58,460 nucleotides of DNA from Escherichia phage SHIN8: the sequence record PP627280.1; one strand, 5' to 3'. Below the pieces are notes generated by a model. The model was not told the DNA's origin. It ran no database searches and saw only the letters and a program-made list of their open reading frames with translations. Below are positions 7,849 to 38,288 of the stretch, in pieces (the stretch's first letter is position 1; each line of letters opens with the position of its first letter). A program made the position numbers and the translations under genes.

Positions 7849-8255
7849 TGGGATTCGGGGCGGATATTCGACGTGCAAGTCAGAAGGTACTTGTTCAGAC
7901 AAGCGAACAGGCCAAAAAAGTCGTTGTCAAGTTCACAGAGAACGTGATACAGGATACTCCTGTTAAGACCGGACGTACAAAAGGTGGTTGGCGGTCATCC
8001 ATTGGTGCGCCGTATGCAACGGAAACTATCCGCCTCGATCCTACTGGAGAGATGGCTAAAGCTGAAGCCCGAGTTGTTGCACGCCAACTACCTAATGATA
8101 AAGACTGGACTTTCTATTTTAGCAACCTGACACCATATGCTGGCAAACTGGAGTTCTTAGGTTGGTCGCAGCAAGCTCCGAACGGTATGGTTCGTATTAA
8201 CGTAGCGAAGCTTCCAATGTTGATACGTCAAGCTATAGCAGAAGGAAAACTATAA
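7848..8255 (+). CDS. HK97 gp10-like neck/tail completion protein
   Basis: 135 aa; IQDTPVKTGRTKGGW resembles gp10-family motif; ATGA overlap with upstream gene. Confidence 0.5.
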   Translation: MGFGADIRRASQKVLVQTSEQAKKVVVKFTENVIQDTPVKTGRTKGGWRSSIGAPYATETIRLDPTGEMAKAEARVVARQLPNDKDWTFYFSNLTPYAGKLEFLGWSQQAPNGMVRINVAKLPMLIRQAIAEGKL

Positions 8256-8704
8256 TGCTTGGATACGATTTCATTAATGATGCATTTAATAAGATGCTAC
8301 GCGAAGCAGTTGGACCGGATATTGGTATAGCGTGGAAGAATAAGAAGTTCACACCTAAAGCCAACCAGATGTGGTTAAAGGCAATCAATGCTCCCGCTTC
8401 CACTTACGCTGCAACGCTAGGTGATAACGGTCTGAATGAAATTCCAGGCTTCTACCAAATCACAGTATATAGCCCTTTAAACACTGGAACGTCTAAGCAG
8501 AATCAAATCTTGGATTCTATTCGGAAAAAGTTTAAACTGGGCTTGCGTATCCCGTGCCCGGATGACCACACGTTACGGATCGTCAGTTTAGACTTTTCGC
8601 AAGGTGGACAAACTTCGCTGAACGATTTTACCAAAGGCGGGGTTGAAGATAACTGGGACGTTAACTTTATCACAATCTATTGGTCGGCTCGTGAGCCGAG
8701 GTAA
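8255..8704 (+). CDS. tail completion/terminator protein (putative)
   Basis: 149 aa, precedes major tail protein. Confidence 0.4.
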   Translation: MLGYDFINDAFNKMLREAVGPDIGIAWKNKKFTPKANQMWLKAINAPASTYAATLGDNGLNEIPGFYQITVYSPLNTGTSKQNQILDSIRKKFKLGLRIPCPDDHTLRIVSLDFSQGGQTSLNDFTKGGVEDNWDVNFITIYWSAREPR

Positions 8705-8718
8705 GAGAGGATCTAAAT

Positions 8719-9642
8719 ATGGCTACAGGTTCACGTTATTCGTGTTACTACGTCAAAGAAGATGTAAGCAACACTACGCCAGCGAGTGCGAAGTTTACTC
8801 CGTTCCGTGTGACCAGCTCCGGTCTGGACATTAATATTGCAACGCTGGAATCTGAAGAACTGCGCGATGACGCTGAAACTGCGGACTTCCGCCTCGGTGC
8901 TCGCAGTGTTGAAGGTACAGTAACGGGCGAAATGTCCTTCGGCACCTTCGATGATCTTATTGCTGCTGCACTTCGTGGGGAGTGGCAAGACAACGTCCTT
9001 AAAGGCGGTATTATCCGTCAGTCATTTACTTTCGTAGACTATAACGCAGATCTACCGTCAGGTAAATATACAATTTATCGCGGTTGCGAAGTTAATAGCA
9101 TGACTTTCTCATTGTCTGCGGAAAACATGACCACAGTGGAATTCGGTATTGTTGGTCGCTCAATGGAAATTGCGGAATCGCTCCCATCTGGTGCAACTAT
9201 CAAAGAGCGTACAACTACTTCACCGATGGATGGTTTCTCCGGCCGCTTGCTGGAAAACGACGAAGAAATCAGCGTTATTACGGAAATCGGTCTTACCGTT
9301 GAAAACGATATTGCACCACGCTTTGTTGTTGGTTCTAAGTTCTCCATTGAACCGTCCGCTGGTCGTCGTGCGGTAACTGGTACAGCTAACGTGTACTTCC
9401 TGGATAACAAGCTGCGTATGAAGTATCTGGATGAAGTGGAAACTTCAATCAAGTTTGATCTGATTGACCCAAGCAATCCGGAACAAAAATACACTGTGGA
9501 AATGCCTCGCGTGAAGTTCACTGAAGCTCCACGTCCTATTGACGGCGAAGGGGATATCATGCTTAATATGGGCTACCGCGGATTGCTGGACCCAACAACC
9601 GCAAGTTCCATCAAAATTACCCGCGTTGTAGCGGGAGCCTAA
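8719..9642 (+). CDS. major tail protein
   Basis: 307 aa, directly upstream of chaperone and tape measure. Confidence 0.55.
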   Translation: MATGSRYSCYYVKEDVSNTTPASAKFTPFRVTSSGLDINIATLESEELRDDAETADFRLGARSVEGTVTGEMSFGTFDDLIAAALRGEWQDNVLKGGIIRQSFTFVDYNADLPSGKYTIYRGCEVNSMTFSLSAENMTTVEFGIVGRSMEIAESLPSGATIKERTTTSPMDGFSGRLLENDEEISVITEIGLTVENDIAPRFVVGSKFSIEPSAGRRAVTGTANVYFLDNKLRMKYLDEVETSIKFDLIDPSNPEQKYTVEMPRVKFTEAPRPIDGEGDIMLNMGYRGLLDPTTASSIKITRVVAGA

Positions 9643-9651
9643 GGATAAGAA

Positions 9652-10059
9652 ATGACCGACACCAAAAAAGCCAAAGTTGTAGTAGCTAAAAGCTTCCGTG
9701 ATTTTAAAACTGTGAGCCGGGCTAACGACCCGGCAAACACTAAGCCAATGAATGTGGTTATTCCTGGTGTAGGCGACACTGGCGAAAAACTCTACATTCG
9801 TAGCCGCTACTGCACAGAGTACCGTGATGCTGAACTGAAAGCACAGCGTCAACTGTTGGCTCTTATGCAGGGTAAAGACGGTGAAGTAACGGATGCTATG
9901 AAGGAAGATATCCTTACCCGTTCACTGTGTAACCTTGTAGCAGGTTGGACTTTTGACGAGCCACCGACTGTTGACAACGTGTTTGAGTTCTTAACGGAGA
10001 ACCCAACTGTCCGAGAAGATCTTAACGTATTTGCCGCTAAAGATAGTAATTTTTTCTAA
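9652..10059 (+). CDS. tail assembly chaperone (gpG-like)
   Basis: 135 aa, ends at slippery T_TTT_TTC immediately before stop; upstream of tape measure. Confidence 0.6.
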   Translation: MTDTKKAKVVVAKSFRDFKTVSRANDPANTKPMNVVIPGVGDTGEKLYIRSRYCTEYRDAELKAQRQLLALMQGKDGEVTDAMKEDILTRSLCNLVAGWTFDEPPTVDNVFEFLTENPTVREDLNVFAAKDSNFF

Positions 10060-10457
10060 AAGCGCGCAGACAGTTAATTGATAAGAAGATCCTCCAATGG
10101 GAACTAAATAGCAAAGTCCCCGGCGGGGGATCTTCTTTATTATCGCAACTGCAAAAGGTTGAGGAACAGTCTGGTAAGACGCCACCTAAGCTTAAAGAAT
10201 ATCGGGAAAAGGAAATACCGGTTTGCTTTGAATACCTGTCTACTTTATTTGATGACATTTACACTGGAGGGGATTTTAGTTATACAGAATTGCACAGCTA
10301 TCAGGTAACAATGGGCTTACATCTTCAACCGTACGAATGCGAAATACTGCGACAGCTATGGCTTGAAAAGCGCGTGTCTGAAGCTGAACAAAATGCTAAA
10401 CTCATGGAAAGTCAAATGCAAAATCAGAATAAAGGTAGAAGGAAAAGGAGAAGGTAA
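9652..10457 (+). CDS. tail assembly chaperone -1 frameshift fusion (gpGT-like)
   Basis: -1 frame is open for 133 codons from slippery heptamer 10050-10056 to TAA at 10455-10457, which overlaps the tape measure ATG. Confidence 0.5.
10050..10056 (+). other. putative -1 programmed frameshift slippery heptamer T_TTT_TTC
   Basis: canonical X_XXY_YYZ in the zero frame of the chaperone gene; nested inverted repeats 10083-10137 downstream. Confidence 0.5.
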
Positions 10458-13400
10458 TGGCCGAAACTGCTTCGCTAGTAATCAGGGTTGACGCGAAAGG
10501 GATTAGCACAGCGGACTCCATGCTGCGTAACCTTGCGCGTACAGGTGACACAGCGGAGCGTTCCGCTCAACGTGTCACATCCAGCTATAAAACATTGTCT
10601 AACACATCTAACGAACTTGCAACTGTCACAAGTCGTTTGGATGCTGCAATTGTAGGAATGATTAGCGTTGACACTATTAGCCGTGTTATTTCGCTGTCTG
10701 ACTCCTGGACCATCCTTACCAACAAACTTGAACTGGCTCGTACGGGTAATGAAACCGTTGCGGATGCGCAACAACGTGTATTTGATATTGCCCAGCGTTC
10801 GCGTACAAGCTTGGAAGCGACTGCAACTCTGTACTCCCGTCTCCAGCGTGCGATGAAGAATACTGGTATGACGGGTATGGAGCTTGGACGTATCACGGAA
10901 ACAATCAACAAAGCAATGATCGTTTCTGGTGCAACGTCCCATGAAGCAAGTGCTGCCCTTATTCAGTTTTCGCAAGCAATGGCGTCCGGTGTTCTGCGTG
11001 GGGACGAATTCCGATCCGTTGCAGAACAAGCGCCCCGCTTAACTCAAATCATGTCCGATGCATTAGGTGTTACCATTGGACAATTGCGCGAAATGGCCTA
11101 CAGCGGCAAGTTAACCGCCGATGTGGTTATCAAATCGTTGTCTGGTGCTGCGGATACAATTGATAAAGAATTTAGCCGCACTATGCCAACTTTCAACCAA
11201 CAATGGACGATTGCAACAAACAACCTGACTAAATTTATGGGTGAATCCCAAAAGACTCAAGGTGCGGTCGCTGCATTGGGTCAGACGTTTGTTGCATTAT
11301 CTGAAAACTTAGGAACGGTTGTAACGGTTGGTTCAGCTTTAGCCACAGTGATTACCGCCCGTATCATTACGGCAATGCTTGCTAAGACTAAAGCGTCTAT
11401 AGCTGCTGCAAAAGCATCACAAATGGAAGCTGCACAAACTGCGGCAACTACGGCGGTGATGCAAAGCTCTATTGGCGTTACCGCACAGAAAGCGGCTGCG
11501 GATCGTGCTGCTTCGCTTGCCGCGTTACAGGTTGCTCGCGGGTCATTAGCGGTTGCTAAGGGTACGGCAGCGGAAGCGGGCGCACGTCTTGCCCTTATTA
11601 ACGCTACCCGTGCGCATTCTGCGGCAATTATGGCGGACGTACAAGCGCGGCAAGCGCTCAATGCTGCTCTTAATGCAACTGTACCAGCCGCAAGCCGGGC
11701 GGCTACAGCAATGAGCGTGCTGCGCGGTGCTATGGGGTTAATTGGTGGTCCTGTTGGTGTAGCAATGCTGGCAGCGGGTGCAATTTACTCCTATAAAGCG
11801 TCGCTGGAAGCAGGTCGTGCGGAAAACAATCAGTTTGCGGATAGTGTTGACAGTGTACGCGATAAATTGATGCAAATGACGGAAGCTCAGCTGGCAGCTA
11901 ACGCGGTCAAAGCTAGAGCAATCCTTCCGGAACTTGAAGAGCAACTGAAGCGGGAGCAGAACGCTCTAAAATCTGCAACAGAAACACAGAAGTTCTATGA
12001 AGCACAATTAAAACGCCGTGCCGCGTCCGGTCGTGATACAGCTAGTGCTGAGAAGAACTTACAAATTGCAACGGATAACGTCAAGCTTGCTGCCGAGCGT
12101 GCTGAAGAAGCTCAACGCCGTTACAACAATGTGCTTGAAATGACAAGTCCCGCTATAGAGAAAATAATCCCTCTAGCGCGTCAGCTTGCTGCGGATATGA
12201 AGGCAGTTCTTAACATCAAATCCGGTCCGTTGATTGACGAAAAAGTATTGGACCGCTTTAAAGGTCAACTAGGGGACGTTAACCGTGAGATTGATGTTAA
12301 CACGGTTAAGGGTGCTGGTAATGCTCGCCAAGCTGCAATCCTTAGTGGACTGTATCAGACGCTGGGCAAGGATGCGGATACATACGGAAGTCTTATTCGC
12401 AAAGTAGCTATGGGCCAGGACGTTAGCTCAGAGGCAACAAGCGAATCCGCTAAAGAGCTTGTTAAATATGCTCAAGATTTAGCGCAAGCTCTTGGCAAAA
12501 ACTACGATCTTGAAGAAGCAGAGAGAAACCGGACTAAAGCTACAAAAGACGGTATTAAAGCAGAACAACAGAACGCCAAAGTTATTGACGATTTACGCAA
12601 CAAGCTTAACGAAGTAACCACAGGAGTTAAGGAAAACGCCAAAGCAAAAGCTCAAGCTGTGGCTTTAAACAAGCTCAATACGTCTGCAACTGCCGCGGAA
12701 AAAGCAGAAGTTGTTAGTCTTGCTGCTGCAATTTACGATGCAGAAGAAGCTCAAAAGAAACTGGACGAGCGTAAGAAGAATCGTAAGTTTGCTCAGGGTC
12801 TGTTAGATGAAGGTATGACAGACTATGAAAAAATCGCGTATGAGCAAAATACTAAGATTGCAGATCTTAATGCAAAACAACGGGCGGATGATCTAGCTTA
12901 CTATCAGCTTTACGAAGACGCTAAGACGCAAGTCCTGAAGAAAGCAAGCATGGAAAGGGAAAACCTGGATAAAGTTCTTATGAACCGAATGATATCCTTT
13001 TCTCAGGAATCCTTAGGCATTATAATGGATGGACTGTCACAGGCTGTAAGCCAGCAGAACTTCTTTTATAAAGCTATGTTTGCAGCACAGAAAGCAATGC
13101 AAATCCCGTCAATCCTTGCCAACACGGAAACCGCGGCTTCTGCGGCGCTTGCATGGGGTACACAGCAAGGCGGTGCCACGATGGGTGCAACAATGGCAGC
13201 TATAGTGAAAACTATGGGTTATGCGTCCGCTGCTACTGTGGGTGGCTTAGCGATTGCTGGTATGGCTCACGACGGTATTGATAACGTTCCGCGTGAAGGT
13301 ACATGGTTGCTGGATAAGGGTGAACGTGTACTTAATGCTCCGTCTAATGACAAGTTAAATCGCTTCCTGGATAGCCAAGCTTCACAACAAGGTGGCGTGA

Positions 13401-13573
13401 ATATGTCCGGTGGTGTTAGCATTGTTCAGTATATCACGGTGCAAGGAAATGGCGATGCAGCACTCACACAAGCCATGCAAAAAGCGGCCCGTGATGGTGC
13501 TGAGCAGGGATATAATAAAGTTCTTAATGACTTTGCATCCCGAGGAACAATTCGTAGAACTGCAATGGGGTAA
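10457..13573 (+). CDS. tape measure protein
   Basis: 1038 aa, Ala-rich, helical, follows chaperone pair. Confidence 0.85.
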   Translation: MAETASLVIRVDAKGISTADSMLRNLARTGDTAERSAQRVTSSYKTLSNTSNELATVTSRLDAAIVGMISVDTISRVISLSDSWTILTNKLELARTGNETVADAQQRVFDIAQRSRTSLEATATLYSRLQRAMKNTGMTGMELGRITETINKAMIVSGATSHEASAALIQFSQAMASGVLRGDEFRSVAEQAPRLTQIMSDALGVTIGQLREMAYSGKLTADVVIKSLSGAADTIDKEFSRTMPTFNQQWTIATNNLTKFMGESQKTQGAVAALGQTFVALSENLGTVVTVGSALATVITARIITAMLAKTKASIAAAKASQMEAAQTAATTAVMQSSIGVTAQKAAADRAASLAALQVARGSLAVAKGTAAEAGARLALINATRAHSAAIMADVQARQALNAALNATVPAASRAATAMSVLRGAMGLIGGPVGVAMLAAGAIYSYKASLEAGRAENNQFADSVDSVRDKLMQMTEAQLAANAVKARAILPELEEQLKREQNALKSATETQKFYEAQLKRRAASGRDTASAEKNLQIATDNVKLAAERAEEAQRRYNNVLEMTSPAIEKIIPLARQLAADMKAVLNIKSGPLIDEKVLDRFKGQLGDVNREIDVNTVKGAGNARQAAILSGLYQTLGKDADTYGSLIRKVAMGQDVSSEATSESAKELVKYAQDLAQALGKNYDLEEAERNRTKATKDGIKAEQQNAKVIDDLRNKLNEVTTGVKENAKAKAQAVALNKLNTSATAAEKAEVVSLAAAIYDAEEAQKKLDERKKNRKFAQGLLDEGMTDYEKIAYEQNTKIADLNAKQRADDLAYYQLYEDAKTQVLKKASMERENLDKVLMNRMISFSQESLGIIMDGLSQAVSQQNFFYKAMFAAQKAMQIPSILANTETAASAALAWGTQQGGATMGATMAAIVKTMGYASAATVGGLAIAGMAHDGIDNVPREGTWLLDKGERVLNAPSNDKLNRFLDSQASQQGGVNMSGGVSIVQYITVQGNGDAALTQAMQKAARDGAEQGYNKVLNDFASRGTIRRTAMG

Positions 13574-13576
13574 TAT

Positions 13577-14161
13577 ATGCTCACTTGGCCCGAAGAAATT
13601 AGACCGTCTGAGATGGAATGGTATCTAGTTTCAAACTCTGTAGAATTTACAAGCCCCTTCAATGGGGCTTCCCAAACTGTGTCCTATCCTGGATCACGAT
13701 GGGAAGCAACGTTGACATTTAGTAATTTAAATGACTGGCAATCCAGAAAGCTCGAATCGACATTAGCTAAGCTTGATGGTAAAGCTGGTCGAATCATGCT
13801 TCAAGATTTTGGTCGTTGGGGACGTGCACCAATTGGATCACCTGTGGTTAACGGTGCAAACAATACAGGGACAACTTTATCAACTAAAGGTTGGACGCCT
13901 AATAGAAAGGTTTTATGGGAAGGGGATTACATCGCAGTAAACGATGAATTAAAATTAATAACCGAGGATGCTTGGAGCGATTCTTCTGGTAACGTGATAT
14001 TAAATATCGCCCCGATGCTAAGGACTATTCCACCGAATGGGGCTAAAATCGAAACTCAAAAGCCACAAGGGGCTTTCCGGTTAGCGGAAAATACTAACGG
14101 GGTTAAGCGTCAGCCCGCTTTTAATAATTCATTCACTCTAAAATTCTCGGAGGCGTTCTAA
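13577..14161 (+). CDS. minor tail protein
   Basis: 194 aa directly after tape measure. Confidence 0.5.
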   Translation: MLTWPEEIRPSEMEWYLVSNSVEFTSPFNGASQTVSYPGSRWEATLTFSNLNDWQSRKLESTLAKLDGKAGRIMLQDFGRWGRAPIGSPVVNGANNTGTTLSTKGWTPNRKVLWEGDYIAVNDELKLITEDAWSDSSGNVILNIAPMLRTIPPNGAKIETQKPQGAFRLAENTNGVKRQPAFNNSFTLKFSEAF

Positions 14162-14745: not shown

Positions 14746-15154
14746 GTTGCCGGGCTGGCAGACACGTTTATTAACCACAGTAAAGGAGTTGTCATCGACT
14801 CCTTTTTCTTGGGGTGAAAATGATTGCTGCACCTTCGCGGCTAAATGTGTTGATGCGCAATACGGCACAAATATCTACGAACAAGTTGCTGGAAAATATA
14901 GTACCGAGCTTGGAAGTAAAAAGTTCACTATTGAAAGAGTTGGAACCGCTTACCTCCCATTGTTATTGGATACTTACCTCAGCGAACGCGTTGACAAGAA
15001 CTATGCGCAAAGAGGCGATGTGGTTACATTTGAGGGAGCATTGGGCTTAACTGCTGGCATATTATGGACTGGATATGTATGGGCTATGGGTCCGAACGGT
15101 GTGGAAACATTCCCGCTTAATAAGATCAAAATTACGGATATTTGGAGGGTCTAA
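14720..15154 (+). CDS. tail tip assembly protein (gpK-like, putative)
   Basis: ORF-track ORF 14570-15154 trimmed to internal ATG 14720 with GGAG RBS; conserved Cys in SWGENDCCTF. Confidence 0.35.
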   Translation: MRQGSPMSKLPGWQTRLLTTVKELSSTPFSWGENDCCTFAAKCVDAQYGTNIYEQVAGKYSTELGSKKFTIERVGTAYLPLLLDTYLSERVDKNYAQRGDVVTFEGALGLTAGILWTGYVWAMGPNGVETFPLNKIKITDIWRV

Positions 15155-18100
15155 TGCCACCAGCAATAATTGGAGCAGCGATAGCTTTAGGTGCGTCGGC
15201 TGCTGCTGCGGCTAGTATTATTTCGGCTACTACCGCTCTCGTTATCGGTATTGCTGCAACCGCGGCAGGTGCTCTTTTGACTAAGACACCAAATATGAAC
15301 TTTGATGCTTACAAGGGGCAGCAAGAGCGTAAACAGGTTCTGCGTGCGGCTACAGCGTCACGTTCTGTTGTATATGGCACGACCGTAGCGTCCGGACTAT
15401 TAGCATTTGCGGAGGAAGAAGCTGGAGATCAAGATGAAGGTGAATGGATGCATCTTGTTGTTGTTCTTGCTAGTCATAAATTGGAAGGTATTGAAACGAT
15501 TTGGTTGGGTGATGACGGAATTGATTGGTTTGGTGAAAACGCTACTTGGGAGTTTCATAACGACCGTCAGACTGTTGACCCATTCATGTTAAGACATTGT
15601 CCTTCCTGGAAGGAGGATATGATTGGCAAGGGTATTGCATGGCTACGTTTAAGCTTAAAGTTTGATGCTGAAAAATTCCCATCTGGTTTGCCAAACGTCA
15701 AGGTGTTGAAAAAGGGACGTAGAGTCTATGACCCACGTTCCGGTCAAACTGTCTTTAGTGATAACGCAGCTCTTGTAATACTCGATTATTTCCGCACGTA
15801 TTTAAAGCGCAAGGATGAAAACATTAACTGGGACCAATTCAAGGAAGCTGCTAACATCTGCGACGAGTTTGTAACTAATGCAGATAATACCACAGAAAGA
15901 CGCTACCGAATTAATGGTGAGTTTGAAGTGGACGAAGCACCTGCCAAGATTCTCGATGCTATGCTTGAAGCTTGTGGCGGGGAGCTAACCTATATTGGCG
16001 GCAAGCATGGTCTGTTAGTTGGTGCTTATTACGGCCCAGCTACCATGACTTTGGATGAAAGCTGCATTGCTGGGGATATTAAAATAATCCCTGAGACATC
16101 TTATAAAGAGCGTACCAATACCATTACAGGTACATTCGTCGACCCGAAGCAAACATACGCTGAAGCAGATTTTCCTCCAGTTGTGGTTAAGGAATGGGTG
16201 GAAAAAGATGGCGGTGAAATAACGCAAGACATGGATTTCCGCTTTGTTACAAGTGAATATCAAGCTCAACGTCTTGCTAATATTATTTTACGTCGTAAGC
16301 GTGTTGGTCGAACAATTGAAGTGCCGTGTAACATGAAGGGGTATAAATTCCGCCCCGGCATGTATGTCAACGTAACCATTTCAAATATCGGAATGAAAAA
16401 CGTTGAGATGCGCGTTACTAAATGGTCATTCGATCCTAAAGGTGGGATTAATCTTGTTCTTCGTCAAGACTTCCTGGAAATGTGGGACGACGCTATTGGT
16501 AAACCAATGGAGCGCCCGGATCTGGTAGACCTTCCGTCTGGTGCTATTGCTCAACCGCAAAACCTTCAGTATCAGGTATTGCAGATTAGCGATGTTGTGC
16601 AGGGTGTTTTAACGTGGAGCAATATTGGGCAGGTAGCATATAACCGCGTAGCCGTGCGACAGGGAGGTACAACGGTTTGGACCGCCCAAGTCCCTGGCCA
16701 AAATGTTCGCGTTACTGGGTTGCTGCGGGGCGCGTATACAGCGCATGTTCAAGCGGTAGCTTACAGCGGGGCAATATCGCCGGAAGCATATCTGGAATTC
16801 AATATTCAAGCACCACCTCCGCCAACTTCTGTTGAAGTGCAACAGGGTTACTTTGCTATAAGTTTGATCCCAAAATCTGCGGATATTGCAAACGTTAGCA
16901 CGCAGTATGATTTCTGGACTTCCGGTGAAACAAGATTGTCTTCCGTGTCTACAGACATTGTAGAACGCGAAGCAACTCGTAAAGGTATGGGTACAACTTG
17001 GACGTCAGAAGGGTTGAAGAATGACCACACTTATTACTGGTATGTCCGCACCATTAACGCTTTCGGATCATCTGCATTTGTAGAAGTAGCTGCATTGTGC
17101 TTTACAACAGCTACAGATTTGATGCCACAAATTGATTCTGAATTCAAGAAGACGGAGACTTACAAAGAGCTTACTACTGAAATCACAGGTGTTAAAGACG
17201 GTGTTACTCAGCTTAGCCAAACTGTAGTGGAAACTGAACAGCGTTTAAGTCAAAGCGTTAGCAATGTTCAACAAAGCGTTATCACTTTAGATGGTGTTGT
17301 TCAGGATCAGGGCGTTACCATTAATGAACAAGGACAGCTCATCGATGCACAGGGTAAGTTGATTGACACTCAAGGTAAGACTATTGAAACGGTTAGCGCG
17401 ACCGTGCAGGAGACAAGTAAAGCAGTTGTAGATTTGGAAGGTAATGTTAACGCTCAATGGGGTGCTAAAGTACAGGTAGATAGTAAAGGGCAAAAATACG
17501 TTGCTGGTATCCAGTTAGGTATGGAAGGGTCCGGTGGAGCTGTTCAGTCTTACTTCATGGTAAGCGCTAACAACTTTGCTATCTATAACCCGACAAATAG
17601 CGTAGCAGAACTAGCATTTGCTGTTAAGAACGGTCAAGTGTTCATGAAGGCTGCGTTTATTGAAAATGGTACTATTGACAGCGCTAAAATTTCAAATCAA
17701 ATTCAGTCAACAAACTACGCAAGCAATAGCGCGGGTTGGATGATTAACAAGAATGGTAGCGCTCAGTTTAACAACGTAACGATAAGAGGTACTGTATACG
17801 CTAGCAACGGATCTTTCACAGGCACAGTGAACGCAACAAGCGGTAAATTCAAGGGTACTGTGGAAGCTACCAGTTTTGTGGGTGATGTTGCGAATATGTG
17901 TGTCATTGCTGAGTCTGCAATACCAAACACACAAACTACAAGTTCAAGAACCTGGACAAAAACTTTCAAAGACTCATCCGGTTCAACATTATCTAAAGAC
18001 TTTGTGTTGCTATTAAGTTATAGTTTAACTGCATATACATCAAATCGGGCAAGTCGTATAATTGTGACTGCTAACATAGGGGAGACATCAATTACAAGGA

Positions 18101-18387
18101 GGATTGAGCGAGCTGCTAATGGTCCTGCCATGGATGTAACCATACCTTTAGCAGTGAAAGGAAGTCGTATAATTGTGACTGCTAACATAGGGGAGACATC
18201 AATTACAAGGAGGATTGAGCGAGCTGCTAATGGTCCTGCCATGGATGTAACCATACCTTTAGCAGTGAAAGGAAAGACAGCGTCGAGCGTAACAATAAGC
18301 GTTAAGGAGGAGTATACGAACGTCTATGGGAGCTACTTGCGCCCGTCTGTAATATTAATGACTCGCGGAACTGGTAGTTGGTCGTAA
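15142..18387 (+). CDS. central tail fibre / host specificity protein (lambda J-like)
   Basis: 1081 aa; hydrophobic N-terminus then J-like core; C-terminal region carries a tandem 37-aa duplication. Confidence 0.75.
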   Translation: MEGLMPPAIIGAAIALGASAAAAASIISATTALVIGIAATAAGALLTKTPNMNFDAYKGQQERKQVLRAATASRSVVYGTTVASGLLAFAEEEAGDQDEGEWMHLVVVLASHKLEGIETIWLGDDGIDWFGENATWEFHNDRQTVDPFMLRHCPSWKEDMIGKGIAWLRLSLKFDAEKFPSGLPNVKVLKKGRRVYDPRSGQTVFSDNAALVILDYFRTYLKRKDENINWDQFKEAANICDEFVTNADNTTERRYRINGEFEVDEAPAKILDAMLEACGGELTYIGGKHGLLVGAYYGPATMTLDESCIAGDIKIIPETSYKERTNTITGTFVDPKQTYAEADFPPVVVKEWVEKDGGEITQDMDFRFVTSEYQAQRLANIILRRKRVGRTIEVPCNMKGYKFRPGMYVNVTISNIGMKNVEMRVTKWSFDPKGGINLVLRQDFLEMWDDAIGKPMERPDLVDLPSGAIAQPQNLQYQVLQISDVVQGVLTWSNIGQVAYNRVAVRQGGTTVWTAQVPGQNVRVTGLLRGAYTAHVQAVAYSGAISPEAYLEFNIQAPPPPTSVEVQQGYFAISLIPKSADIANVSTQYDFWTSGETRLSSVSTDIVEREATRKGMGTTWTSEGLKNDHTYYWYVRTINAFGSSAFVEVAALCFTTATDLMPQIDSEFKKTETYKELTTEITGVKDGVTQLSQTVVETEQRLSQSVSNVQQSVITLDGVVQDQGVTINEQGQLIDAQGKLIDTQGKTIETVSATVQETSKAVVDLEGNVNAQWGAKVQVDSKGQKYVAGIQLGMEGSGGAVQSYFMVSANNFAIYNPTNSVAELAFAVKNGQVFMKAAFIENGTIDSAKISNQIQSTNYASNSAGWMINKNGSAQFNNVTIRGTVYASNGSFTGTVNATSGKFKGTVEATSFVGDVANMCVIAESAIPNTQTTSSRTWTKTFKDSSGSTLSKDFVLLLSYSLTAYTSNRASRIIVTANIGETSITRRIERAANGPAMDVTIPLAVKGSRIIVTANIGETSITRRIERAANGPAMDVTIPLAVKGKTASSVTISVKEEYTNVYGSYLRPSVILMTRGTGSWS
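18051..18272 (+). repeat. perfect tandem duplication, 2 x 111 bp, in-frame within tail fibre gene
   Basis: 18051-18161 and 18162-18272 identical base for base; encodes the same 37 aa twice. Confidence 0.9.
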
Positions 18388-35702: not shown

Positions 35703-36607
35703 TCTTTCCCGTAATAATTAGCTACTTGATAGTTTTGACAACCAACTTTCTGTCCTTGCGTATCCACTGCGACGGAATGGAAATTGCAATACCATGTTCC
35801 ATCTTCTTTAGGTTCAAGGAATTGGCATGTGCGGCAGTTTACTTCCGGCATAGTTTTACGCCAGCATAGTGAGGAGTGATCGCACCATTTACATTCGAAG
35901 AAAGTGGAATCTTTAAATGCGCGGTCCGGAATATCTGTAGCAATAGCAATCTGCACACCACGATCAATATACATGTCCGCGGTAACAGGATCAAACGGAA
36001 TAATTTCTGCGTAAACTTCATCGTCATTCTTGTTTACAGCAAGATATAACGCTGCGCCAAGACCTAGTTTTCGCATGTACACGTTCATCTGTACATAGTG
36101 TTCAGGTTTAGCTTCTTTGACACCTTTAGCTTTCAGCTTTTTAAAAGACTTATCGTTATGTGTCTTCATTTCGGTGAGCACAGGCATCCCAGGCTGCACG
36201 TCCGGACAACCTATAACCACACCATCGCAGGAACCGCCAAAGTGTCCGCCAGCTTCGCTGATACGGAACTGGTGTCCGTTTTCGTCCTGCTGGTAGACCT
36301 GCATACCTGCCGCAAGCAGCATAGCAATGAAACGGGCTTCTTCCAGATGTCCGCGGTTAAACAGTCGAAGCTGGCGTCCGTCAAACTCTTTGCGTGTGGC
36401 CCAGCGATATCCATAGAAAAGCTTGCGTGCGCATTGCTGCCCAATAAGGGAAGCGCCTAAGTGACTGCGGTTACCGCTTTCAGGGCGATAAGCGTCTTCA
36501 ATTGTGGGAATGACTACGCCAAGATACTTACGGTAAGTCCCACCCTGATCTTTTTGCACACCGTCATTGATCGCTTGAAGTGTTTTTTCTGCAATATAAA
36601 TAGCCAT
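35699..36607 (-). CDS. PD-(D/E)XK nuclease, Cas4/RecB-like with C-terminal Cys cluster
   Basis: 302 aa; D...EMK and QMNVY motifs; CKWCDHSSLC...CRTC. Confidence 0.55.
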   Translation of the reverse strand: MAIYIAEKTLQAINDGVQKDQGGTYRKYLGVVIPTIEDAYRPESGNRSHLGASLIGQQCARKLFYGYRWATRKEFDGRQLRLFNRGHLEEARFIAMLLAAGMQVYQQDENGHQFRISEAGGHFGGSCDGVVIGCPDVQPGMPVLTEMKTHNDKSFKKLKAKGVKEAKPEHYVQMNVYMRKLGLGAALYLAVNKNDDEVYAEIIPFDPVTADMYIDRGVQIAIATDIPDRAFKDSTFFECKWCDHSSLCWRKTMPEVNCRTCQFLEPKEDGTWYCNFHSVAVDTQGQKVGCQNYQVANYYGKD

Positions 36608-36672
36608 TGGAATACCTTAGAAAAATAAGCCGTCTTTCGACGGCTTATGGACACTACAGAGGGAGGGTTATC

Positions 36673-37560
36673 TTACTGCTGCCACGGCGGGACTGCTGCT
36701 TGTGCCGGATGCGGTTCAGCTTGCTGCTGCGGCTGAGCTTGCTGCTGAGGTGCTGCTGCTTGGCCAGGCTGTGCTACCTGCTGCGCCCACGGCTGCTGAG
36801 CTGCTTCCGGTGCTACTGGCTGTTGTACCGGAGCTTGCTGCACTGGCTGCTGTGGTGCTGCGTTTTGAGCAGGATTATCCCACGGCTGCGGTGCGGCATT
36901 CTGCCACGGTTGTGCTGCTGCGCCCTGCTGTGGTGCTGGTTGCTGCTGCACAGGCTGCTGAACTGGCTGCTGTTGCTGCACCGGAGCTTGCTGCTGTACA
37001 GGCGCTTGCTGTTGCTGAGCAAACGGGTTAGCTGCTGGTTGCTGTGGTGCTGCGCCCGGGAAAGCTGGCTGCTGTGCTGGCGCACCTGCACCGAACGGGT
37101 TAGCTACTGCCGCTTGAGCACCCATTGCTGGAGCACCTGCTTCTTTTTCCGCATACTTAACCGGATCGTTAATGTTAGCATAACCGTTAGGCTCGTTGCT
37201 GTCTTCATAACCTTCCTGAGAACGAACTTTCAGACGCAGGTTCAGCGGAATGTTATGCAGTTGAGCAGGAGTATCCCAGCGAATTACGCCAACCGCATGG
37301 GAAAGCGCGCCCAGTTGTTCGTATGCGATACGCACAGTATCTTCGTTGTCGTTGATAACGTTGTAACGAGCAAAGATTTTACGACCTTTGGCAAAACCAT
37401 CAATGATGCTAAACGTTACCTGGATCGCCATACCGCCATTTTTGGTCGGTTTAAATTCAGATGCTTCAATTACTGCTTTATACCAACCTTTCGGCAATGC
37501 GCCGTAAGAAGGTGCTTGATAGCTGCTCGCGTCAAAGTGGAAATTAGTTGGCATAGTCAT
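36673..37560 (-). CDS. ssDNA-binding-like protein with Gln/Pro/Ala-rich C-terminal tail
   Basis: 295 aa; globular N-domain ~140 aa then low-complexity QQQAPVQQ repeats; next to Sak4-like ATPase. Confidence 0.4.
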   Translation of the reverse strand: MTMPTNFHFDASSYQAPSYGALPKGWYKAVIEASEFKPTKNGGMAIQVTFSIIDGFAKGRKIFARYNVINDNEDTVRIAYEQLGALSHAVGVIRWDTPAQLHNIPLNLRLKVRSQEGYEDSNEPNGYANINDPVKYAEKEAGAPAMGAQAAVANPFGAGAPAQQPAFPGAAPQQPAANPFAQQQQAPVQQQAPVQQQQPVQQPVQQQPAPQQGAAAQPWQNAAPQPWDNPAQNAAPQQPVQQAPVQQPVAPEAAQQPWAQQVAQPGQAAAPQQQAQPQQQAEPHPAQAAVPPWQQ

Positions 37561-38288
37561 TAGTTAATACCTTTCATTTTGTTGATAACAGAACCTAAGT
37601 GTGGGACTTCAACCGCATCTAAACGTCCCGAACGATCCTTAGCGATTGTATTAAAGTCCGGTTGAGTTTGCAAGTAACGATACGAGTTACCTTGCTGATC
37701 CTTATTTACATTCAGACGAAATACTTCGTCGAAGAAGTAAGGGAGCATTTGCCCCAATTTGGATCCAGGCATAGATGGAGCATACGCGGTAACACCGGAG
37801 ACTTCATCTTTGTCTTTGCCCATTTTAGCAGACATATAAACATGTTTGCCAGGAATATCGCGAAATTTACGGATCAGATCTTGCATCTTTTCAAGCAAAG
37901 TACCATAAGCTTGACGAGGATCTTTCGTTCCCTTTTTCGCGTTGTTTAAACATTGTTCAGCAATTTCGCTCAAGCTGTCAAGCGCAATAGAATCGAAATA
38001 CTGCTGGTTAGCTGGAGTTACGCACCACTGATAAGCCGCTTCAACGTCTTCCAGACATTTCACTTCAATTACCGGAATATCGTAAACGATGGGCAAACCC
38101 ATGTTACCATAAACACGGTTAAGGTTTTCCGCTGCAATAGACAACAGACCGGATTCTGCGCTGATTAAAATTGGTTTAGGTAGTGTGGCTACAAGGCTGG
38201 TTTTACCCATACCTGCTTCACCGTAAACCAGAATTTTAACACCTGTGTCCTGCACAACTTGTGAAGACATTTTAATTTCAATGGCCAT
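37560..38288 (-). CDS. RecA-like ATPase (Sak4-type recombination protein, putative)
   Basis: 242 aa; N-terminal Walker A GEAGMGKTS. Confidence 0.55.
   Translation of the reverse strand: MAIEIKMSSQVVQDTGVKILVYGEAGMGKTSLVATLPKPILISAESGLLSIAAENLNRVYGNMGLPIVYDIPVIEVKCLEDVEAAYQWCVTPANQQYFDSIALDSLSEIAEQCLNNAKKGTKDPRQAYGTLLEKMQDLIRKFRDIPGKHVYMSAKMGKDKDEVSGVTAYAPSMPGSKLGQMLPYFFDEVFRLNVNKDQQGNSYRYLQTQPDFNTIAKDRSGRLDAVEVPHLGSVINKMKGIN

Follow-up and report, generated by a model that had tools for sequence, protein, structure and literature searches.

Escherichia phage SHIN8 likely makes two tail assembly chaperones from one locus: a 135-aa protein, G, and a 268-aa protein, GT, produced by a programmed -1 ribosomal frameshift on the heptamer T_TTT_TTC at the 3' end of G. 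Based on our sequence analysis, we put the probability of this reading at about 0.9. The frameshift itself was known before: GenBank, RefSeq and UniProt have listed the same fusion protein since the genome of Seurat, the type phage of the genus, in which the event is already annotated. Biologically, the G/GT paradigm is not extended by it. The sole loose end, of modest interest, is a hairpin in the mRNA that appears to be selected and stands at a non-canonical distance from the slip site.

The window, that is the whole stretch of 58,460 nucleotides analyzed here, carries the locus within a run of tail genes. Over about 2.5 kb around the frameshift it is 94-98% identical to 33 sequenced Seuratvirus (Queuovirinae) coliphages, including KS_A3, slur01, CAjan and Seurat. 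Pfam and PHROG matches give the gene order as terminator, tube, G, T, tape measure protein (TMP) and Dit, and the features are as follows.

8255-8704, + strand: tail terminator gene (PF13554).
8719-9642, + strand: tail tube (major tail) protein gene, directly upstream of G (PF18906 Phage_tube_2, 3.8e-41; PHROG 290).
9652-10059, + strand: gene G, read in the zero frame to give the 135-aa tail assembly (tape measure) chaperone (open reading frame; PHROG 313 and PHROG 569; naming in relatives).
10050-10056, + strand: slippery heptamer T_TTT_TTC, in X_XXY_YYZ phase with G (sequence; in-phase conservation among relatives).
10057-10059, + strand: TAA stop of G, abutting the heptamer (sequence).
10056-10457, + strand: T segment, lying in the -1 frame, with 133 sense codons and then TAA (translation, substitution pattern, PHROG 569).
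10079-10142, + strand: conserved RNA hairpin (folds, synonymous-recoding null, variation pattern).
10158-10367, + strand: Phage_TAC_18 domain, T residues 35-104 (PF23812, 1.5e-9, 38.3 bits against a cut-off of 27).
10445-10459, + strand: Shine-Dalgarno-like AAGGAGAAGG and the TAATG stop/start overlap between GT and the tape measure gene (sequence).
10457-13573, + strand: tape measure protein gene, 1038 aa (PF20155 TMP_3, 7e-60; PHROG 339, 1.6e-181).
13577-14161, + strand: distal tail protein gene (profile matches).

The chaperone locus is flanked by the tube gene (PF18906, 8719-9642) and the tape measure gene (PF20155, 10457-13573), which is the position of a G/GT pair. A small GC hairpin, CCCGCGTTGTAGCGGG, lies at the very end of the tube gene (9620-9635), just before G, and is not followed by a T-tract on the + strand; in the records of the Nonagvirus phages HdK1 and SP8 a terminator is annotated at the equivalent tube/G junction. 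Further along the window, a perfect in-frame tandem duplication of 111 bp (18051-18274; 2.0 copies, 100% identical, 37 aa) sits near the C-terminus of a 1081-aa J-like central tail fibre reading frame (15142-18387). A 501-bp query over it maps onto 390 bp, that is onto a single copy, in 12 of the 12 relatives listed (the best 12 of 22 records), and it could be either a real recent duplication in a host-recognition protein or an assembly artefact.

The anatomy of the frameshift region can be read directly from the DNA. Gene G ends in GAT AGT AAT TTT TTC TAA, in which the heptamer is read AA[T TTT TTC] TAA, so that the slippery heptamer does lie in phase just before the stop, as a preliminary description of this DNA had claimed. 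In the -1 frame a TAA occupies 10047-10049, hence the frame is open from 10050, the first base of the heptamer, and its overlap with G is 7 nt, exactly the heptamer. Because the overlap consists of only those 7 nt, any -1 shift joining the two frames must occur there. From 10056 the -1 frame runs through 133 sense codons to a TAA at 10455-10457, where the final A is at the same time the first base of the ATG of the tape measure gene at 10457 (TAATG, 10455-10459). The stop is preceded by AAGGAGAAGG; the overlap of this stop with the tape-measure start had been described correctly. So had the size of the fusion (about 268 aa), as conceptual joining of G and T gives 268 aa. The preliminary description was also right in counting 133 open codons, but not in stating that they contain no ATG: ATG codons occur at 10311, 10404 and 10416, along with TTG at 10290 and GTG at 10374, and it is only the first 80 codons (10050-10289) that are free of ATG, GTG and TTG. 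Among 20,000 dinucleotide shuffles, 3 kept the frame open (about 1.5e-4), the probability calculated from composition is 6e-5, and across the same stretch stops number 4 and 17 in the two remaining frames. Two overlapping frames, the downstream one without a start of its own over its conserved part, are what is expected of a G/GT pair.

The pattern of substitutions shows that the -1 frame is translated, with purifying selection at the protein level upstream of any start codon. Among 10 Seuratvirus sequences, 10050-10457 has 52 variable columns, 38 of them at third positions of the -1 frame. When the variable codons are divided into those with synonymous changes only and those with an amino-acid change, the counts are 31 and 11 in the -1 frame versus 1 and 42, and 2 and 41, in the other two. 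As counted from the list of variable columns, 23 of the 28 columns upstream of the first possible start (10290) are third positions, so the coding signal precedes any possible start codon. Profile searches place the T part in a chaperone family: it matches PF23812 (Phage_TAC_18) with 38.3 bits, above the gathering cut-off of 27, and the domain begins at about 10158, inside the start-free stretch. PHROG 569 aligns with the whole conceptual fusion, residues 1-268 (5e-77), and as the alignment runs from end to end, this family holds full-length fused proteins.

For the G part, membership in the tail assembly chaperones comes from PHROG 313, named 'tail assembly chaperone' (3.6e-11), together with PHROG 569 (7e-26), as that of T comes from Pfam and that of the fusion from PHROG 569. 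Its match to the Pfam family Phage_TAC_4 is below threshold (14.3 versus 21.1 bits), its AlphaFold2 model, built on an alignment of 8 sequences, has a pLDDT of 45 and a pTM of 0.31, and sequence and profile searches of the PDB with G returned no meaningful matches. The sub-threshold Pfam chaperone match of G counts against the frameshift model, as do the lack of a stimulator at the canonical spacing and the separate reading frames annotated in several records.

The slip site is conserved well beyond the genus. A tblastn search with the T part found 86 phage records, roughly 33 of which are near-identical Seuratvirus sequences, while matches at 25-46% identity come from Nonagvirus (9g, JenK1 and others), Pantoea phage Vid5 and phages of Providencia, Klebsiella, Pseudomonas, Stenotrophomonas and Alteromonas. 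In every locus fetched, T lies in the -1 frame behind a reading frame of 129-158 aa, with TTTTTTC in phase inside the overlap (TTTTTTA/TTTAAAG in K4PH164); phages with an in-phase heptamer at the homologous position include 9g, Vid5, PSTCR4, Kpn2-P2, Ab19, ZQG1 and R7M. The zero-frame stop ranges from adjacent to the heptamer to 103 nt downstream, and the in-phase heptamer is kept regardless. The first two columns in an alignment of 12 T parts, 21-76% identical to that of SHIN8, are an invariant Phe-Phe encoded by the heptamer itself. Both TTTTTTC and the stop are retained in Hafnia phage yong3 and in metagenomic intermediates. Among relatives in IMG/VR the -1 arrangement is found in 65 of 65, behind an upstream open frame of 128-300 codons; a strict X_XXY_YYZ heptamer, in most cases TTTTTTC or AAATTTT, is present in 53, and in the remaining 12 G_GUU_UUU or A_AUU_UUA takes its place. 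In the sequences compared, an in-phase U-rich slip site and the -1 arrangement recur down to about 25% identity in T. In four relatives from Pseudomonas and Alteromonas phages the stop of G follows TTTTTTC by 46-103 nt, and their minimum free energy (MFE) folds, unlike those of the enterobacterial clade, place a hairpin 6-7 nt after the heptamer, the canonical spacing of a stimulator; the overall stability of these folds is not above the synonymous null.

Given this conservation along with the gene order, the in-phase heptamer, the purifying selection, the chaperone domain and the matching annotation in the curated records of Seurat and SA80RD, the reading of the locus as a G/GT-type -1 frameshift, already proposed from the SHIN8 sequence, is well backed. 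Most ribosomes on G would read AAU UUU UUC and terminate at UAA to yield the 135-aa chaperone. A small fraction would slip back by 1 nt, with the two tRNA-Phe on UUU-UUC re-pairing at UUU-UUU, and would read on in the -1 frame from 10056 to the UAA at 10455-10457. The product would be the 268-aa GT, its C-terminal half bearing the Phage_TAC_18 domain, and T is predicted to be expressed only as that half. If the analogy with lambda gpG/gpGT holds, the G part common to both products may bind the tape measure protein encoded directly downstream, the T part may recruit the tube protein encoded directly upstream, and a fixed low frequency of slipping may set the ratio of G to GT for tail assembly. 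The binding partners are taken from that analogy, and we infer both that the slippage is ribosomal and that it is infrequent. U_UU.U_UU.C is among the heptamers that gave more than 0.10% -1 frameshifting in E. coli with no stimulator (PMC4066793).

The same 268-aa fusion would also result from transcriptional slippage, if RNA polymerase inserted one extra U at the T6 tract. The sequence does contain six consecutive T, and by our reading of it an additional U would lead to the identical protein (...N F F L K...). For transcriptional slippage to be efficient in bacteria, a run of about 8-9 A or T is generally required, which counts against slippage on T6. It is further disfavoured because non-homopolymeric heptamers are in use among relatives and the ribosomal phase is always kept: AAATTTT, TTTAAAG, G_GUU_UUU and A_AUU_UUA, found at the homologous position, are classic tandem-slip sites without a long homopolymer, and X_XXY_YYZ phase is relevant to ribosomes only. 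We consider this route to the fusion very unlikely. In a second rival there is no fusion, and the downstream frame yields only a small separate protein started at TTG 10290 or ATG 10311. This accords with the in-frame ATG and TTG codons and with the short coding sequences that the records of KurtStettler, KS_A3, Skure, STP-SP5, 9g and others give for the region, but its likelihood is close to negligible: the Phage_TAC_18 match begins 130 nt before the candidate starts, at T residue 35 (about 10158), amino-acid conservation and third-position-biased substitution reach up to the heptamer across 80 codons devoid of ATG, GTG and TTG, and the annotated starts vary between records.

Programmed frameshifting at this locus has a history of uneven annotation. 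In KM236243.1 (phage Seurat), CPT_Seurat14 is a two-piece joined coding sequence named 'tape measure chaperone', and 'ribosomal slippage (10236)' is noted on CPT_Seurat13; position 10236 corresponds to 10053 of the SHIN8 window. The record of SA80RD (OL960575) has the same joined chaperone, and a 268-aa entry is present for SA126VB too. The fusion built from the Seurat DNA by a shift at the heptamer is exactly AIW03876.1 / YP_009151957.1 / UniRef100_A0A0A0RTG6. Seurat gp13/gp14 (AIW03877.1, AIW03876.1) is the orthologous locus, with about 95% DNA identity, and Seurat, vB_EcoS_SA80RD and SA126VB all share with SHIN8 the heptamer, the stop, the 268-aa fusion and the TAATG junction. The SHIN8 and Seurat fusions differ at three residues, and the exact SHIN8 fusion is absent from a collection of 15 billion proteins. 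The Seurat paper merely names a 'tape measure chaperone', and our literature searches found no experimental work on the frameshift or on either product in Queuovirinae.

The frameshift is annotated in some records of close relatives and missed in others. KurtStettler and KS_A3 (10311-10457 in both), Skure (from a TTG start) and STP-SP5 have small separate reading frames instead. None of the records from eight Nonagvirus loci, Vid5 and two Providencia phage loci annotates the chaperone frameshift; they give a separate 'hypothetical protein' from an internal TTG or ATG, and the RefSeq label on G in these records is often 'tail length tape measure protein'. The practical value of the present analysis is in annotation, as the joined chaperone is missed and arbitrary small reading frames are called in many records of the group, including all Nonagvirus records inspected, BASEL phages and Pharokka-style records. 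An in-phase U-rich heptamer at the homologous position provides a simple rule for repairing them.

Downstream of the slip site, the inverted repeat that had first been noted (10083-10105/10115-10137) is present and folds into a hairpin spanning 10079-10142, with a 17-bp lower stem containing one bulge, an internal loop, 4 + 3 further base pairs and a 9-nt loop. Its parts are a core stem (10085-10095/10125-10135), an upper stem (10098-10101/10119-10122) and a variable apical part (10102-10118). The preliminary description had proposed that nested inverted repeats at 10083-10137 act as a stimulatory structure. The hairpin exists and is conserved, but the stimulatory role is unproven because 22 nt separate the heptamer from its 5' edge (10079), more than the usual 5-9 nt; in other genera the hairpins start after 18-35 nt. 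According to PMC5009743, 3' stimulators begin 5-9 nt, rarely 12-15 nt, after the heptamer. A three-way junction closed by helices 10062-10064/10180-10182 and 10067-10075/10165-10173 would reduce the spacer to 5-10 nt. The closing helix is paired in 98.8% of cells of the Seuratvirus alignment, and STP-SP5 has two compensatory changes in it. However, neither in the SHIN8 window (21/150) nor in most other genera do the closing pairs exceed, in expected number, the synonymous-recoding null, and we rejected the junction as evidence.

The hairpin is probably a functional mRNA element, and what its function may be has two main answers. We give an even chance to its being something other than a stimulator, namely a site for RNase III or other processing, a 3'-end stabilizer or a partial terminator, which would raise expression of the tube protein and G relative to T, TMP and the later tail genes. 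This would suit the spacer of 22 nt (18-35 nt elsewhere), outside both the 5-9 nt and the rarer 12-15 nt ranges, and the long stem of about 24 bp with interruptions. In Seuratviruses the core stem is followed by UUUAUUAU, and a pattern scan flags the apical stem with a T-rich tail. In addition, lambda-type G/GT shifting is low-level, and no 3' structure is named for it in the portion of PMC5009743 that covers it. If most ribosomes stop at 10059, the hairpin would lie in mostly untranslated RNA. On the other hand, the U-rich tail is missing after the equivalent hairpins of 9g and Kpn2-P2, terminator-like matches in the region number 7 versus 5.9 in shuffles, and stimulation from a distal 3' position has precedents. 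We rejected an intrinsic terminator as such, as pattern matches are no commoner than in shuffles and the U-tail is not conserved beyond Seuratvirus. Distal 3' effects on -1 shifting are known from T7 gene 10, where they act over more than 200 nt, and from IS elements with stem-loops 44-104 nt away; given these effects, it is possible, though unproven, that the hairpin is a distant stimulator. Somewhat doubtful, and offered tentatively, is the proposal that the hairpins of Seuratvirus, Nonagvirus, Vidquintavirus and the Klebsiella-phage relatives form an undescribed distal regulator of the G:GT:TMP ratio. Such a regulator could modulate frameshifting from a non-canonical distance, or it could be a processing, termination or stability element in a stretch that only frameshifted ribosomes translate. 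If the hairpin does tune frameshifting or the fate of the transcript, it would add modestly to the understanding of tail-protein stoichiometry in siphophages.

The case for a role at the RNA level begins with the fold, which appears more stable than the encoded protein alone would account for. The 111-nt segment 10050-10160 that contains the hairpin has an MFE of -33.7 kcal/mol (z = -3.7), and 0 of 200 shuffles were as stable. A hairpin arising only as a by-product of its peptide (..KKILQWEL..VPGGGSSLL..), without function at the RNA level, would agree with the conserved residues encoded by its arms, and most core pairs never vary, hence they hold no covariation information. Against this, synonymous recodings of the SHIN8 hairpin peptide fold much more weakly (z = -3.0, 0 of 300 as stable), as they do in 8 of 10 enterobacterial-clade representatives (z -2.3 to -3.5, at most 6 of 300 reaching that stability); under the same null, the mean z of control coding windows is -0.79. 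Variation at third positions among Seuratviruses is also suppressed, at 1 of 29 in 10056-10144, compared with 64 of 132 in G, 37 of 104 in the rest of T and 91 of 200 in TMP (Fisher p = 3e-4 and 1.5e-6, the latter versus G). In Nonagvirus the synonymous suppression is not significant (4/29 versus 24/99, p = 0.31; also p = 0.07), which fits a by-product; the stem arms of the Nonagvirus hairpin are invariant and changes fall in the loop. Strong hairpins of different sequence, with z of -2.3 to -3.5 against the synonymous null, occupy the same codons in 9g, Kpn2-P2-like phages, Vid5 and one IMG/VR locus, again unlike what a mere by-product would leave. Taken with its conservation, this makes RNA-level selection on the hairpin apparent beyond the constraint from the protein, and we regard the by-product explanation as unlikely.

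An alignment widened to Seuratviruses, metagenomic intermediates and Hafnia phage yong3 (56-81% identical in G) has variable positions at 4 of 30 sites in the core and upper stems and at 14 of 17 in the apical part. In it 94.6% of cells pair, a value reached by 0 of 500 shuffles, and double changes occur at three pairs. From our reading of the alignment, the 9g and Kpn2-P2 hairpins share a common register, with compensatory pair differences. A multi-genus codon-aligned consensus fold yielded no consensus structure; there is no position-by-position covariation across genera because the hairpin registers are shifted by 2-5 nt. No excess fold stability over the synonymous null was found in the K4PH164 group or in the Pseudomonas-phage group. 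A search of the whole window against Rfam gave no family at gathering score, the hairpin locus having only noise-level miRNA-like hits.

Two other stretches of the window stood out in these scans. The first, a CTG/GCTG-rich low-complexity stretch at 36850-37060 inside a long + strand open frame (36604-37563), includes control windows at 36874-37030 with z down to -5.8 versus the synonymous null but z = 0.28 versus dinucleotide shuffles; as these outliers reflect CTG-rich low complexity and not structure, the control distribution is conservative. The second, at 10327-10461, is another valley of low variation among Seuratviruses, with 5-6 variable columns per 90 nt compared with 15-25 elsewhere. 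The valley takes in the ribosome-binding site of the tape measure gene and the 3' end of the T frame, its RNA is less structured than shuffles (z = +1.4), and its pattern fits an open translation-initiation region plus protein constraint.

Several known systems resemble parts of the SHIN8 locus. IS911 and dnaX have bacterial tandem-slip heptamers with a 3' stem-loop or three-way junction, but these structures start 5-9 nt from the heptamer versus 22 nt in SHIN8, and dnaX has an upstream Shine-Dalgarno sequence; an IS911-like three-way junction in SHIN8 would depend on a predicted closing helix that is no better than chance. T7 gene 10A/10B undergoes a -1 shift on a U-rich tRNA-Phe site, G_GUU_UUC, akin to the G_GUU_UUU used by some relatives of the SHIN8 locus, and in T7 gene 10 a 3' element acts far beyond the canonical spacing. 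Unlike the SHIN8 locus, 10A/10B is a capsid gene with its distal element more than 200 nt away in a terminator, and there is no homology between them.

The likeness to lambda gpG/gpGT concerns the arrangement as a whole. We take the G/GT literature (Levin 1993; Xu, Hendrix & Duda 2004, 2013, 2014) as it is summarized in PMC5009743, according to which the partner of the lambda G part is the tape measure protein, that of the T part is the major tail subunit, and assembly requires a molar ratio near 30:1. The SHIN8 slip site, U_UUU_UUC with two tRNA-Phe, differs from the G_GGA_AAG of lambda, and, unlike in lambda, the zero-frame stop abuts the heptamer and a strongly conserved hairpin lies 22 nt downstream. 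As in lambda and other long-tailed phages, the locus stands between the major tail and tape measure genes, and the longer product, like the GT predicted for SHIN8, shares a common N-terminal chaperone domain with the shorter one. In long-tailed phages the G/GT arrangement is conserved despite low sequence similarity, as it is among the relatives of SHIN8.
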